Assembly: GCF_024521635.1 (NCBI RefSeq)
Contig: NW_026250426.1
Coordinates: 496,001-560,000 of the forward strand
DNA from: Tricharina praecox
Taxonomy: Eukaryota
Reading direction: 5' to 3'
Length of the DNA stretch: 64,000 nt
Of this stretch, positions 1 through 22,444 are shown in pieces; the first letter of the stretch is position 1; every line of letters begins with the position of its first letter. Below the pieces are notes generated by a model, which made no database searches, was not told where the DNA came from, and was given only the letters and a program-made list of their open reading frames with translations. The translations under genes and the position numbers were made by a program.

Positions 1-305
1 CACCCGGCACTGGTCCGTCTAATACCTACTGTTGGCTAGGGGTGCCGGTGAACGCTGCACTACTGGTAGTATATCTTCCTTCGGAGCCTTGAGCTACGTT
101 TCCATGGCGGCACGGTACGGAATGGGACACTGGCCAGGACAGGACGGTGCGGTACGGCACGAGATGGTACGAGATGGTACATACGGAGGGAATTGAGTCA
201 CGAACACGGTAGAGTGGAGTATCGTTCAGCTCCCGACCACGGAGGGGAGAAAGCCTACGGGCCTTTTCTAGGGAGTAGGACTAGGAGAGGACATCGCGGA
301 GTAGA

Positions 306-16783: not shown

Positions 16784-17700
16784 TTAACGAGTTTTGGGAG
16801 CCGCCTTGGGGGCAGCACCCTTGGCACCCTGCTTAGATACCTTCTGTGCCTGACCGCGGGCAGCACCGGCAGCGTTCTTGGCCTTCGCGGCCTTCTTCAC
16901 GCTCTCAGCGGCAGCCTTCTTCTCCTTGCCCTCCTTGATGGCGGCGGCACGGACAGCCTGGCGGGCCTCGGGACGCAGCGAACGCTTCTCCTTGATCACA
17001 TCGAGCGACAGACCAACGATGGGACGCTGGGCCTTGACGGTGCGGCGGGTGCGCTTCTTGGCGGTTTCCTATAGTGGTTGTCAGTCGTCACTCGCACCTA
17101 TGCGTATCTGTGACATGACAATGACGAACCTCGTGGACACCCTTCTTGTGCTGGCGACGGAAAAGAACAGTCCAGGCGATCCGTCTGGGGTTCTTGCGCT
17201 GAAGGAAGAGCGACTCGGACTTTCCGTTCACGAAGCGGAAGATCTTGGAGTCACCGCGGACAAAGAGCTTTCCCTTGGAGGGGTAGATCTTGCGACCTAG
17301 CAGTAGCGAAGGTTCGTTAGATCATGCTCGGCGGGTAGGAGTGAATAGACGCGGTCGGTGGATGGACTGAGTAGGCAAAGGCATACCGGAAAACGAATCT
17401 TGCTCGACCTGTTTGTACCAATAGTCAGCTTCTCGAGATCCCCATCAAGCTTAAAAAGCAACGTCCGCCTAAATATCCAGCTGTTGCTCAGAGCTGTGTT
17501 TGAACATAATCCCGTCCCTGCCTCTTCGCCAGAATAATCCCATCTCTTCCCGTTTCATTCTTGCAGCACTTCCCCAGCTTCCCAGCAATTCCCCCTATGT
17601 TCAAACACAGCTCTGCTCGCCTCCTCCTCTTTCCTCCGTATCGCCCCGCAACAGCCTCGTATTTTTTTCGGCCGCGACGCAAAAACAAACGTACCTTCAT
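16784..17700 (-). CDS. RPL24: 60S ribosomal protein L24 (eL24), ~159 aa; exons 17700-17695, 17408-17387, 17296-17130, 17068-16784
   Basis: MKVEQDSFSGRKIYPSKGKLFVRGDSKIFRF..GKSESLFLQRKNPRRIAWTVLFRRQHKKG..KKRTRRTVKAQRPIVG; canonical introns. Confidence 0.96.
17489..17615. repeat. Perfect 20-bp inverted repeat (87-nt loop) inside RPL24 intron 1
   Basis: CAGAGCTGTGTTTGAACATA (17489-17508) and TATGTTCAAACACAGCTCTG (17596-17615). Confidence 0.95.
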
Positions 17701-18691
17701 TGTAGCTGGTTAGTTCGTCGAAGGAAATCGGGGGGTCGGTCGGTCGGGGTCGTTGTTGTCGTCGTTTGATATTTCGTTTGTGGCGTTAGATTGGGGATGA
17801 TTTCCGCACCCGGCCGTGGTGCGCGCGAGAGTTCGTGTGTGTGGGGCTTTGGGCCCAAAAGACAAGTCACAACTAGAGGGCAAGGTGCGTGCTGTTTGTG
17901 GGCTTGGCGTAAGTTCATGACGTAGCACTCGGCTGGGAGAAGAACGGTGGCTTGAAGTGGCAATTTTTGATGATAATTGAGGCGTAGCTTTATGCACAAG
18001 AATCATAACGACTATGGTCGGCAGACGAGAATTGAACTATCCTCGCGGCAGAAGTTCGTCCTTGCGCACAAATAAATTGGGAAGAGAATATTCACACCAA
18101 CTAGGACCACGATGTGGATTAGCCACTCTAACGAAATGGGCCGCCAAAAACTATGCCCAATGCCAATGCTCACTCTCAGCATTTAAATAGGCGCATCAGC
18201 CGCAGTTGTGCGCTTCTCATTCGCTTACATGGTCGCTCATCCTGAACCCGGGGAGGTCGATACATACACTATCTAAATCGACAAACACCATCGATTGCCT
18301 TTGTGGCGTTTGACTATTGTCAACGATTAGATCTTCAATCTTTTACAGCTATCTTGTGTGTCCATACTAAAGATGGGGCAATGGCATCTGGTAGAGCTGA
18401 TGGGGATTGTCCTCTCTGTGAGGTATAAATGAAGCTTCCGTGCGGTTCGAGAAGGGGACAGTCCTTGGACATTAATTTCTCACAGCTGGCGAGACCAAAA
18501 CAACGCCGTAATATTTTTTGGAGTACATAGCCGGGTTACCCCCGCCGAGCGAACGATGTCTTGGGGGATGGAGGAAGTCCGTCATGATCGGGGTAACGGT
18601 CTTCTCATACTTTCTAAAGCAACATCTACTGGATATTCTGATGTACAGGAGTAAAAAATCCACCAGTTGTTCATTGATTCGACGTAGTAAA

Positions 18692-19544
18692 CTACAACTT
18701 CGCCGCCCCATTGGCCGCCCCATTGGCGGCCCTGCATTCATCAGTCCTCCTCCCATACCGGCATCCCCAAGCTACCAAGCACTTACAAAGTCTCCTTCAG
18801 GAAGTGCACCAGCTTCTTGTACCCCTTCTCATAGTACTCCAAATTCTCCTTATCCTTCAAGTTCGCCCTTGCAGCCATGAACCCGTGGAATGTTCCCTCC
18901 CACCTGAGCACCAGACTCTTCTCGCCGACGACGCCCTTGACGGCCTCCAGCACGGTCCTGAACCCCTCCGTCGCCGCCGCATCTTCATCCTTCGTCGACA
19001 AGCAAAAGTGGGGAATGGTGATCTTCGCAGCGTCGGCGGGATCCAACATAGCGGGATGCAACTGGGCACTCGCGGCGAACCCCTCGCCGGCACTCAGCAG
19101 CGTAACAATCTTGCCGCCCCAGCAGTAGCCAATGACGGCCCACCTATCGACGGCGGGGTAGGTCTGCTTAACGGCGGGCAGGACCTCCGCGCGGATTTTC
19201 TGCACCATGGGGCCGGGGTTGGCAAGGCCCGCAAAGAACGTCTGCAGCGCCTGCTGCTTCTCAGGGGTGTCGGGCGGGAAGTTCGCCATGTCCATGGGCG
19301 CGCCGTCGAATAGGTCGGGCATCACGACGAGGTGCCCAGAGGACCCAATGATGTCGCACCCCTGAAGCGTCTGCGGGAAGTCCATGCCGAAGATGTCGTA
19401 GATCACGAGCACGCCCGTCTTCGATGTGGTCGGGCCAACGGCGTACGTTCGCAGCGACGAGATCGTCGTGTACGTGCCCTGCGTCTGGTAGTTGTCGGTG
19501 TCCGAGACGACCGGGGGGATGGTGCAGCAGGCTTTGGATGTCAT
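18692..19544 (-). CDS. Dienelactone hydrolase family protein. Unspliced form 19544-18783 (253 aa, ends KETL); spliced form (intron 18786-18732) 265 aa, ends -AKL (PTS1).
   Basis: ACCTIPPV, YDIFG, VVMPDLF, GYCWGG nucleophile elbow, HGFMAAR. Terminal intron GTAAGT...ACTGAT...TGCAG. Confidence 0.9.
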
Positions 19545-19953
19545 TGTGGAGGTTGTGGTAATTGGTGATGGTGGGTTGGCGGTTGATTGATGTTGAGATG
19601 AGGTTTATGTATTATGTATTGACGGAAGGGAGTGCTGCTTCTTCTAAACAGCGGTTAACCCCGCCGGACTTAGCTGACTTAACTGACTTAACTGACGTCA
19701 ACATGGGCTCCCCAACCTCGGCGTATGCACAATCCCTGTTGCCGATAAACAATGCGACGATGTCTGGACAACGAAAAGTGCACACATATGGCAGCGGGTG
19801 CAGGTACTTCACAGAAAAGATTTAGACTGGTTACTTCACGCGAATGGTCGACCAGTAAACGACAGATCCCTCTCCACCAGTTCCATTACTAACTATATCC
19901 TTCTAATCCCACTGCAAAAAATCAAAGAGGTATCAAACACTGTCCATCCCGCT

Positions 19954-21132
19954 CTACACAGTCTGACCACCACCGTACACCTTTCCGAGCGCCACGTTTT
20001 TCGCGTTGGCAACAAAGTATTTCCTTCCCTTGACGAACCAGACCAACACTCCCCACACCTTCCACTTGTTGAGGATACCCGTTCCCATGGCGAAGCCACC
20101 TCCAACGGGCACCACCATCGGTGTCTCTTCATCCTTGTACTCCTTGAACGCCTCCTCGCCCTTTCCTCCAACCACCGCCAGGATATTTTCGACCGCGGCC
20201 TCGAGCATGGGCTTGGTGGTGATCGTCTTCTTCTGCTTGACGGCCGCTGCGTCTCCAATCGCCCAGATGTTCGCTTGAACGGTGCTCTGCATGTGCGCCG
20301 AAACCTTGACGCTGCCGGACTCATCCAGCAACTCCGCTGGGAGGAACTGGGTATTCGGGGTGATTCCGTAAGTCGGAATGTGCAGGTCCGTCACCATCGT
20401 CTCGCCATTCGACAGCGTGAGCGTCAATCCCTCGTCACCGGCGACCTCGGTCGTGACCTTCACGCCGACATGCACCTCGACACCCAGACCCTCCAACAAC
20501 TTCTGCGCCGTCAACCCAACATCCTCCCGGACCATCGGCAGACACCGCTCGCCCGACGACAAAAGTATAATCTTCTTCCCCTTCCCCTTGTACAGCGTTG
20601 CGATCTCGCCCGCCGTCTCCACACCCGTCGGGCCCGCACCACTCAAGACAATCGTCTTCGCGGCCTCAATCTTCACCTGACAGTCCTTGAGCGCCTTCGC
20701 GGTCTGCACATGAGTGCCCACGGCCTTGAACGGCCACGCACCCGCACCAGCCGCGCCAGTCGCCACCACAAGATGCGCATACTCGACGACCCTCTCGGCG
20801 CCCTCGACACCCTCATCATCCACGCTCTTGATGGTGACCTTATTCGTGGCCGCATCGACGGCGCTTGCCTTGCCCTGGATAAACTCGAAGCGGTCCTCAG
20901 CGTAGGCGGCGAAGCCCGGGGTGATGGGCGCAAACACGTCCGCGTTGTCGGTAGAGAACTGGTTATCGCGGGCGACGGCGCGCGGCGCCGCAATGTTCCA
21001 GAATATGTGTGTCGATGGGTTGACGAGGATCACCTTGTACTCGGACGGTAGCGCACGGAGGAGCTTGTGCGTCGTTGGGATGCCGGCGAAGGAGGCGCCG
21101 AGGATCACGATGGTGGGTGTGGTAGTGGCCAT
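19954..21132 (-). CDS. AMID/AIF-like FAD-dependent pyridine nucleotide-disulfide oxidoreductase (FSP1/AIFM2-like), 392 aa
   Basis: IVILGASFAG, FWNIAAPR, YAHLVVATG, GAGPTGVETAGE, PNTQFLP, IWAIGD. Confidence 0.9.
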   Translation of the reverse strand: MATTTPTIVILGASFAGIPTTHKLLRALPSEYKVILVNPSTHIFWNIAAPRAVARDNQFSTDNADVFAPITPGFAAYAEDRFEFIQGKASAVDAATNKVTIKSVDDEGVEGAERVVEYAHLVVATGAAGAGAWPFKAVGTHVQTAKALKDCQVKIEAAKTIVLSGAGPTGVETAGEIATLYKGKGKKIILLSSGERCLPMVREDVGLTAQKLLEGLGVEVHVGVKVTTEVAGDEGLTLTLSNGETMVTDLHIPTYGITPNTQFLPAELLDESGSVKVSAHMQSTVQANIWAIGDAAAVKQKKTITTKPMLEAAVENILAVVGGKGEEAFKEYKDEETPMVVPVGGGFAMGTGILNKWKVWGVLVWFVKGRKYFVANAKNVALGKVYGGGQTV

Positions 21133-21265
21133 TTTTGTTGTGAGTGGGTGGTGAGGGTGAGGGGCGGGTGGGTGTGCGTGAGGGCGGGTGCGGGATCGAG
21201 GTGCTGGATGAATTGTATGGGGACTGCCTCGTGGGAGGGGGTTTTATATGGCTGGCTGGCGGCAA

Positions 21266-21305
21266 GAGAGAAAGTTATCGGAAGGGGTTGAGAGAAAGTT
21301 ATCGG
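21266..21305 (-). promoter_or_regulatory. Duplicated GATA-containing 16-mer next to a TATA box upstream of the AMID-like gene
   Basis: GAGAGAAAGTTATCGG at 21266 and 21290 (GATAAC on the minus strand); TATAAAA on minus at ~21242-21248. Confidence 0.4.
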
Positions 21306-22444
21306 GAAGGGTTCGAGAGCGGGAGCTAAGCCAGGGACCGTTTTTGTGGGACGAGCGGGTAGGGAAGATCTAATCTCGAAGAACGATATGCGCAGCTTGA
21401 GAGACAGAAGTGTAACCGCAAGGAGTAGCAGTGAACCGAAACTAGGCGGCGGACTACGGACTGTTGACTGTGGACTGACTGGGGATTGTGGACTGCGGAC
21501 TGTGGACTGGGACTGCGGATTTATATCCTCAGTCCACCTCACTTCACGACTTCAAAGAGGCTGATAAGAAAATCGCTTGCCGGCAGATCGATCTGTCGCC
21601 TACGTAGTTTCAAGTAGTCCGTAGACCCTGCATGTGCTTGCAGGAACACCAGGAACTCCGAGGCCGCTCCGTAAGCGTTTTTTGTGTGCTTGTTAATTCC
21701 AGCAGAGCTGCGGGGCTTCCTTGCACAGAACCACATAACCACATGGGACCCCACATACGATGCTCTCGCGAGCTGCCCGGGAAATTCGCAATGTCCGATC
21801 GGGGAGGCAAGACACGGAGCGAACATGGGCCGCCTATGGAGAGTCGCAGTAGCAGGGGCCGGGTTGAGGAATTTCCGAAGGTCCGTGTGCAGTTACCACG
21901 AGCGATGGAACGTGATCTCTGCATACATAGGCTAAGCGTGACTCAGTGAAAACCCGTGGTGAGTAACAACGGAGCACTGAGCATACGCGGCGCCGACAGA
22001 TTGGACGTCGGGCGTATCTACACTGTAATAATCACTCGAGCTGTAGCTCATTGGAGGTCGGATGTTCACGGTACTCTATGACCGCACAAAGACTGGAGAC
22101 TTGGGCTCGTTCGTTTGATGCTTGTTGCTTGACCATACGACACTCATATTCCCATGTACTTGTCGCACATCTTTGTCCTTTCCCGAGAGAGAGGAACATC
22201 AATTTGTTATTACATATGGCCCTTCTAGACTACCTATGGCGACCTTCTACCCGATCTTTGCTGCTTTTTTGTGTAGTCATTAATCGCATGTCACCTACTG
22301 AAGTTCCTACCGGTATGTACTCTATCTACTCCAGATCATGGCAATACCTACCGGTATGCCCCGACCTTCCTGCTTTTACTCGGGCTCGGCGGGACTCACA
22401 TCGCCGAGTAAGCTCCCGTGATCCTTCACATATGTATCTCCAGA

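Follow-up and report, generated by a model that had tools for sequence, protein, structure and literature searches.

The window, a stretch of 64,000 nucleotides from the genome of Tricharina praecox, carries on its minus strand an intron-free open reading frame for 253 amino acids, whose product belongs to the dienelactone hydrolase (DLH) family (PF01738; E 1.6e-19, score 70.8 bits with a cut-off of 21, covering positions 1-216 of the 217 in the profile). Homologous sequences belong to the 'AIM2 family' dienelactone hydrolases of the Pezizomycotina (filamentous ascomycetes), the nearest named ones coming from Pyronema omphalodes (67%), Trichophaea, Sphaerosporella and Geopyxis. The AIM2-family enzymes C30D10.14 of S. 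pombe and AIM2 of S. cerevisiae have the same fold, family and length as the hydrolase of the window, and the N-terminal KACCTIPP sequence as well as the cysteine motif GYCWGG are common to both sides. In an alignment of 12 relatives, the nucleophile C141 (GYCWGG, equivalent to G-x-C-x-G-G) and H220, the histidine of an HGF motif, are invariant, and both align with the Cys and His of the solved dienelactone hydrolase 9n2w (profile E 3e-4). A PDB search with the single hydrolase sequence returned no match, and the profile search returned distant dienelactone hydrolases only. A Cys-His active site is predicted from these alignments, with a less certain assignment of the catalytic acid residue. 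Three relatives at 60% identity (P0010, P0434 and P0435) depart from the family at the C-terminus, diverging after ..YYEKGF into Pro/Gly-rich tails of varying length; a frameshift, another intron or noise in the assembly may be the cause.

The distinctive part of the gene is its very end, where the stop codon forms part of a predicted 5' splice site (Table 1). The initial annotation had placed the TAA within a donor TT/GTAAGT at 18786 and had proposed a 55-nt intron with an ACTGAT branch site and a TGCAG acceptor at 18732, a leucine codon rebuilt across the joint and a new end at AKL-stop; this description proved exact to the base. Upon splicing, TT (18788-18787) and G (18731) restore the leucine codon, in agreement with a script translation, and the codons that follow this G are GCC GCC AAT GGG GCG GCC AAT GGG GCG GCG AAG TTG TAG. 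The spliced product of 265 residues closes with AKL-stop, a C-terminal tripeptide of the type [SAC][KRH][LM]; at the extreme C-terminus of a protein, this pattern defines the PTS1 motif. Within the micro-exon the two units of a tandem duplication are followed by GCG GCG AAG TTG, and two close relatives (L001 and L003) carry one unit. The 55-nt intron is the sole intron-like match within positions 17000-22000 of the window, and most homologue models end at the residue homologous to the last one before the TAA of the window. Readthrough of the TAA was considered as a route to a PTS1 and was rejected, the frame meeting a TGA after 13 codons without a PTS1.

Table 1. Features of the hydrolase locus, in positions of the window
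Feature	Position	Strand	Remarks
Open reading frame	19544..18783	minus	253 aa, intron-free; ends CTG AAG GAG ACT TTG TAA
Exon 1	18787..19544	minus	ATG (19544) to TT of the Leu253 codon; AIM2-type dienelactone hydrolase
TAA stop	18785..18783	minus	read on intron retention, giving the 253-aa untagged product
5' splice site GTAAGT	18786-18781	minus	overlaps last base of the Leu codon and TAA; phase-2
Predicted terminal intron	18732..18786	minus	55 nt
Branch-site-like ACTGAT	18745-18740	minus	A at 18741, 9 nt ahead of the acceptor G
3' splice site TGCAG	18736-18732	minus	
Micro-exon	18692..18731	minus	G completes Leu, then 12 codons AANGAANGAAKL; TAG at 18694-18692
AKL codons	18703-18695	minus	C-terminal end of the spliced product
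12-nt tandem duplication	18707..18730	minus	in-frame, 2 units, each A-A-N-G with one CCAAT
CCTCGG hexamer	19716-19721	plus	about 175 nt upstream of the ATG; probably meaningless

Upstream of the gene, a CCTCGG hexamer, which we take to be the FarA/FarB motif of the fatty-acid regulon, had been offered in the initial annotation as weak evidence in favor of a peroxisomal enzyme. This argument has to be given up: the window holds 27 copies against 45.6 expected, and of 36 orthologous loci, 13 have the hexamer in the 600 nt upstream, only slightly more than the 22% of shuffles and unexceptional among hexamers of the same composition. The promoter has other features. About 125-155 nt upstream of the ATG (19667-19700, minus strand), a palindromic TGACGTCA (CRE/bZIP-like) is followed by three copies of a 9-nt unit, GTTAAGTCA / GCTAAGTCC, an array that by its sequence could form a stress-type bZIP site cluster for the hydrolase gene. 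A near-identical GC-rich motif, CGGCGGGG(T/G)TAACC(C)G, flanks the gene on the minus strand at 19651-19667 (promoter) and at 18531-18547 (about 150 nt past the micro-exon), a pairing that may be due to chance. The upstream neighbor of the hydrolase is an ORF of 392 aa (19954-21132, minus strand) with an N-terminal dinucleotide-binding motif GASFAG; it resembles AIF/FAD-dependent oxidoreductases, and there is no PTS1 at its end.

A stop codon within the donor is nothing special as such, since it arises automatically in any phase-2 intron with a GTAAGT, GTGAGT or GTAGGT donor. A loose intron-like pattern is likewise not enriched across the window (9 found versus 7.1 +/- 2.6 in shuffles), which rules out the intron pattern by itself as evidence. 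When a donor overlapping the stop had to coincide with a YAG acceptor and with an in-frame PTS1 no more than 20 residues on, 81 of 9000 shuffled flanks (0.9%) qualified. For comparison, metagenome contigs were scanned with an alignment of 12 relatives. Of the 187 stretches that matched, 135 encode a relative; the 80 best were used. Removal of identical copies, of loci whose flank past the stop was shorter than 170 nt and of three loci with a match ending at an internal residue left 52 distinct orthologous loci, the window included. A locus was counted as PTS1-positive if splicing to a YAG acceptor, over an intron of 40-160 nt, joined on an in-frame tail of at most 20 aa ending in [SAC][KRH][LMI]-stop.

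Orthologues do show the conserved intron overlapping the stop for which the initial annotation had proposed to inspect them: the same layout is found in 29 of the 52 distinct loci, which are interrelated and hence do not count as 29 independent events, as against the 0.9% of shuffles. The wrong phases satisfy the PTS1 rule in 4/45 and 5/45 loci. The last coding base before the stop is G in 45 of 52 loci, and a full GTRRGT extends over the stop in 30 of 52. Among the 29 PTS1-positive loci the tripeptides are SKI (11), SKL (10), AKL (4), SKM (2), SRL (1) and AKI (1), and a CTRAY motif lies no more than 40 nt from the acceptor in 22. Their introns measure 46-153 nt and their tails 6-9 residues, extended to 12 in the window because of the 12-nt in-frame duplication. 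PTS1-positive loci include proteins only 33-45% identical to the query, with introns that cannot be aligned. The residual 23 loci have no strict PTS1 under the rule, and in seven of these there is no G/T donor. Near-PTS1 tails ending in PKI occur in L019, L020, L042 and L053, and non-YAG acceptors in L001 and L018, the flank of the latter being too short to count; L008, whose flank is too short to count as well, reaches SKL via an ordinary TAG acceptor. The comparative evidence is decisive in arguing that the stop-in-donor intron and the PTS1 micro-exon of the hydrolase family are not a product of chance.

The nature of the micro-exon can be judged from nine pairs of related micro-exons of equal length (L052 and L055 each enter two of these comparisons), in which 22 codons differ synonymously and nine non-synonymously and the tripeptide is constant. 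L040 and L044 specify the same seven residues with four synonymous changes and no non-synonymous one, and their introns are identical at 35 of 51 positions. The synonymous excess and the constancy of the tripeptide argue for a coding exon and not for a DNA or UTR motif. The terminal intron of one clade (L019, L020, L052-L055, L057, L059 and L066) can end at either of two acceptors: the proximal one (54-55 nt) restores NTG followed by a stop, such that the protein is the same as upon retention, and the distal one (about 87-97 nt) yields a tail ending in SKI or PKI. The evidence tips, if only by a little, towards a terminal-intron PTS1 switch of ancient origin that has been kept by selection and, in this one clade, refined by the proximal stop-recreating acceptor. 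Its presence in Pezizomycetes (the window), Dothideomycetes and lichen-forming classes suggests that it probably dates back to the ancestor of the Pezizomycotina.

The close relatives of the window locus present a more varied picture. L001 and L002 (82% identical) have the AKL in frame and keep the ACTGAT; in L001 the donor GTAATT and the acceptor AAG are weaker signals. L005 (68%) combines a GTAGGT donor, CTGAC, a TAG acceptor and a tail ending in AKL. Its near-twin L004 keeps the CTGAC and has an in-frame TAG in the micro-exon where L005 has CAG (L004:2320-2335), and in L003 (84%) a deletion of about 40 nt has left 16 nt of the intron and put AKL out of frame (L003:715-760). The PTS1 reading is accordingly broken in two of the five close relatives, by different routes (the deletion in L003, CAG>TAG in L004), losses which suggest that the peroxisomal isoform is subject to turnover in the close clade. 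Nothing else in the 3' flank of the window, L001, L003, L004 and L005 is as well conserved as the stretch GGC[GA]AAG[CT]TGTA[GA], and the changes of this AKL island in the close clade are TTG>CTG, which is synonymous, and TAG>TAA. An extended isoform was found neither in the 90%-identity clusters of the window protein nor in those of its Pezizomycete relatives. In a Pyronema model of 405 aa (P0422), the hydrolase sequence breaks off at the same donor (..KEV, with F in place of L) and gives way to an unrelated, membrane-like stretch, most likely because the model wrongly fuses it to the downstream gene. Judged from these sequences, the feature appears intact and well formed in the window, and the losses and weak signals in relatives, together with the lack of an extended isoform in Pezizomycete clusters, point to a constraint visibly weaker in the close clade than in Dothideomycetes.

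In other fungi, both isoforms exist. A PTS1 tail is present on 11 of 193 distinct homologues among the matches listed (P0040, P0045 and nine more). Ascochyta lentis (M3J09_004482) and Ascochyta rabiei (EKO05_0006544) each have an annotated 257-aa isoform ending in SKL and a 251-aa isoform, the prefix being identical at 251/251 residues in either species. Identical prefixes are likewise found in P0158 (257 aa) and P0212 (251 aa), both products of contigs of about 1 kb, and for Pyrenophora teres models of 256 and 250 aa occur within the 90%-identity clusters. In some species the long form alone is annotated, as in Curvularia (P0173) and Byssothecium (P0127). The contigs of about 1 kb (L006-L013, L015, L016, L024 and L025) are without internal introns in 12 of 12 cases, whereas long genomic contigs at similar distance have 1-2; L025 ends in poly(A). 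The comparison of L010 with the genomic L061 (92% DNA identity) is instructive: exactly the 93-nt internal intron of L061 (GT..CTGAC..AG) is absent from L010, and this cDNA-like contig is collinear with L061 through the terminal intron and the PTS1 exon. As the internal intron is gone and the terminal one kept, the retained form must be a processed transcript and not just pre-mRNA or DNA, in that species at least.

For Tricharina praecox, four runs (X1-X4) were compared with the window. A 912-nt contig of X1, which is not on record as RNA, spans 18666-19568 and runs without a gap over the 55-nt intron, the micro-exon included. Run X2, not on record as RNA either, is fragmented: among the 8 of its 26 contigs that were listed, 60-nt pieces at 18751-18871 reach a summed depth of up to 13985; variants, adapters or alternative forms may account for this fragmentation. 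An adapter-like loose end of X2 lies at 18703, inside the micro-exon. Neither X1 nor X2 has cover at 18300-18665 and 19601-19791, which was not counted as evidence, and no contig of X3 or X4, metatranscriptomes from the same study, matched the window stretch. The spliced joint 18787/18731 was seen in none of the four runs; contigs drop rare variants, and splicing in this species is neither shown nor excluded by them.

Taken together, these results favor, with reasonable though limited confidence, a hydrolase gene that makes both the untagged 253-aa enzyme and a 265-aa, AKL-tagged enzyme imported by Pex5, from one pool of transcripts. If the intron were retained, translation would end at the TAA and give an enzyme without targeting signal, presumably cytosolic; if it were spliced, the leucine codon would be rebuilt and a flexible tail of 12 residues ending in Ala-Lys-Leu added. 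With this tail, a canonical PTS1, the receptor Pex5 would carry the enzyme into peroxisomes, and incomplete or regulated splicing of the terminal intron could divide the enzyme between the two compartments. Because many related fungi keep the same arrangement, one gene probably supplies cytosol and peroxisome. From what is generally known of nonsense-mediated decay (NMD) in fungi, the retained mRNA should be stable, since about 120 nt follow the stop (the 3' limit being the end of the X1 contig, 18666) and there is no further intron. The proposal builds on the observed sequence anatomy, the conservation among orthologues, the protein-level constraint on the micro-exon and the occurrence of both isoforms in other fungi; by extension, both forms would be made in Tricharina praecox, AKL would work as a PTS1 in its context, and the enzyme would have a peroxisomal role. 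The original equation of retention with an untagged enzyme and of splicing with a PTS1 enzyme has therefore been strengthened for the family, by the 29 of 52 loci, the micro-exon constraint and the isoform pairs elsewhere, but in Tricharina praecox itself only an unspliced contig has been seen.

On the other hand, the micro-exon could be ancestral in the family and yet a relic in the clade of the window, where the intron would stay unspliced or be spliced at noise level and only the 253-aa enzyme would matter. It is in keeping with such a history that the window and its close clade have been seen in unspliced form only (the bridging contig of X1; P0002, P0258, P0251 and P0256), that the reading has been lost in L003 and L004 and is poorly signaled in L001, and that Pezizomycete clusters hold no extended isoform. 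A decaying element, however, would hardly be expected to have splice signals that could not be better (GTAAGT, TGCAG) and a frame still intact, which even the 12-nt duplication has preserved; nor would AKL-stop be expected to stand out, throughout the clade, as the best-conserved island of the 3' flank, its Leu codon changing synonymously. Moreover, minor isoforms are under-reported by gene callers and contig assemblies, and family-wide most homologue models come without the tail even where it clearly exists. A relic is considered unlikely on these grounds, although it keeps some weight. Less likely again is the opposite case of constitutive splicing, in which the 265-aa peroxisomal enzyme would be the real product and the 253-aa ORF an artefact of reading through a phase-2 donor. 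The automatic stop in GTAAGT or GTGAGT donors of phase-2 introns, the frequent failure of gene predictors to find micro-exons and the annotation of the long form alone in Curvularia (P0173) and Byssothecium (P0127) would all fit. However, the assemblies of the window gene and most of the orthologue contigs of about 1 kb hold the unspliced form, L010 has lost its internal intron but not its terminal one, and two isoforms per gene are annotated in Ascochyta; furthermore, a proximal stop-recreating acceptor ahead of the PTS1 acceptor, as found in one clade, makes sense only if both products are wanted.

It might also be argued that the conserved block GGGGCGGCGAAG(C/T)TGTAG with its CCAAT units is a regulatory motif of the 3' UTR or the DNA and that the splice signals around it are fortuitous. 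The block does contain CCAAT and GC-box-like strings, L003 has kept it although it is untranslatable there, and the window as a whole shows no excess of intron-like patterns. This explanation nevertheless appears very improbable, as distant orthologues that share no sequence in this region have in common the stop-in-donor intron and the in-frame PTS1, synonymous differences outnumber non-synonymous ones, and the shuffle rate is 0.9%. Dual targeting through the terminal intron accordingly stays the preferred reading. Should it be correct, the AIM2-type dienelactone hydrolase would have an unrecognized, conserved peroxisomal job, dosed by the efficiency of splicing, and peroxisomes together with the cytosol would become a hypothesis for its site of action. 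Most public gene models, which stop at the donor and miss the micro-exon, would be in need of correction, and further cases could be sought by a simple rule, namely a phase-2 donor that holds the stop and, beyond the intron, a PTS1 exon of 6-12 codons. For the window alone the gain is modest, since only the unspliced form has been seen in Tricharina praecox.

A hidden PTS1 is known to give dual targeting to a handful of enzymes from central metabolism; the hydrolase extends this group by an entire enzyme family, for which the comparative support is unusually broad. The mechanism as such is thus known (MDH, GAPDH, PGK, GND), and the dienelactone hydrolase family is apparently undescribed as a case of it. 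In the literature searched, no paper connecting dienelactone or AIM2 hydrolases with a cryptic PTS1 was found, nor was a published peroxisomal form of an AIM2-family enzyme, for which most gene models stop at the donor stop; the word 'dienelactone' is absent from the review PMC9549241, and the supplementary candidate lists of Freitag 2012 could already include the family. The raw fact is already in the databases, given the isoform pairs in the public annotation of two Ascochyta species.

According to excerpts in PMC4207609 and PMC9549241, GAPDH and PGK acquire a cryptic PTS1 by alternative splicing or readthrough (Freitag, Ast and Bolker 2012, Nature 485:522). As in the hydrolase, one gene conceals the PTS1 behind its main stop, a minor extended isoform is directed to peroxisomes, and the arrangement is patchy but recurrent across fungi; in contrast to these enzymes, the hydrolase of the window cannot make use of readthrough and is not a central metabolic enzyme. 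In the 6-phosphogluconate dehydrogenase of Candida albicans, alternative splicing gives a minor peroxisomal isoform that reportedly accounts for about 0.1% of the mRNA (Strijbis et al. 2012, according to the excerpted text of PMC7491326), which illustrates that a minor isoform can escape assemblies. The signal in that case is an N-terminal PTS2 obtained via alternative 3' splice sites, whereas that of the hydrolase is a C-terminal PTS1. The closest parallel in these excerpts is the fungal malate dehydrogenase of Aspergillus fumigatus, Lipomyces starkeyi and Yarrowia lipolytica, in which retention of the final intron gives a protein without PTS and its splicing a C-terminal PTS1 (Hurtig et al. 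2020, PMC7491326; Kabran et al. 2012 cited there). As far as this account extends, the two systems differ in the enzyme family (MDH versus DLH/AIM2), in the added tail, with 12 residues in the window (6-12 in the family) as compared with a single one in MDH, and in that no splice junction was seen in the four runs for the organism of the window. Along the same lines, the malate dehydrogenase of A. fumigatus is described there as having a proximal 3' splice site that leads to the same protein as retention and a distal one that leads to the PTS1, which is exactly the layout of the hydrolase clade with two acceptors (L019, L020, L052-L055, L057, L059 and L066).
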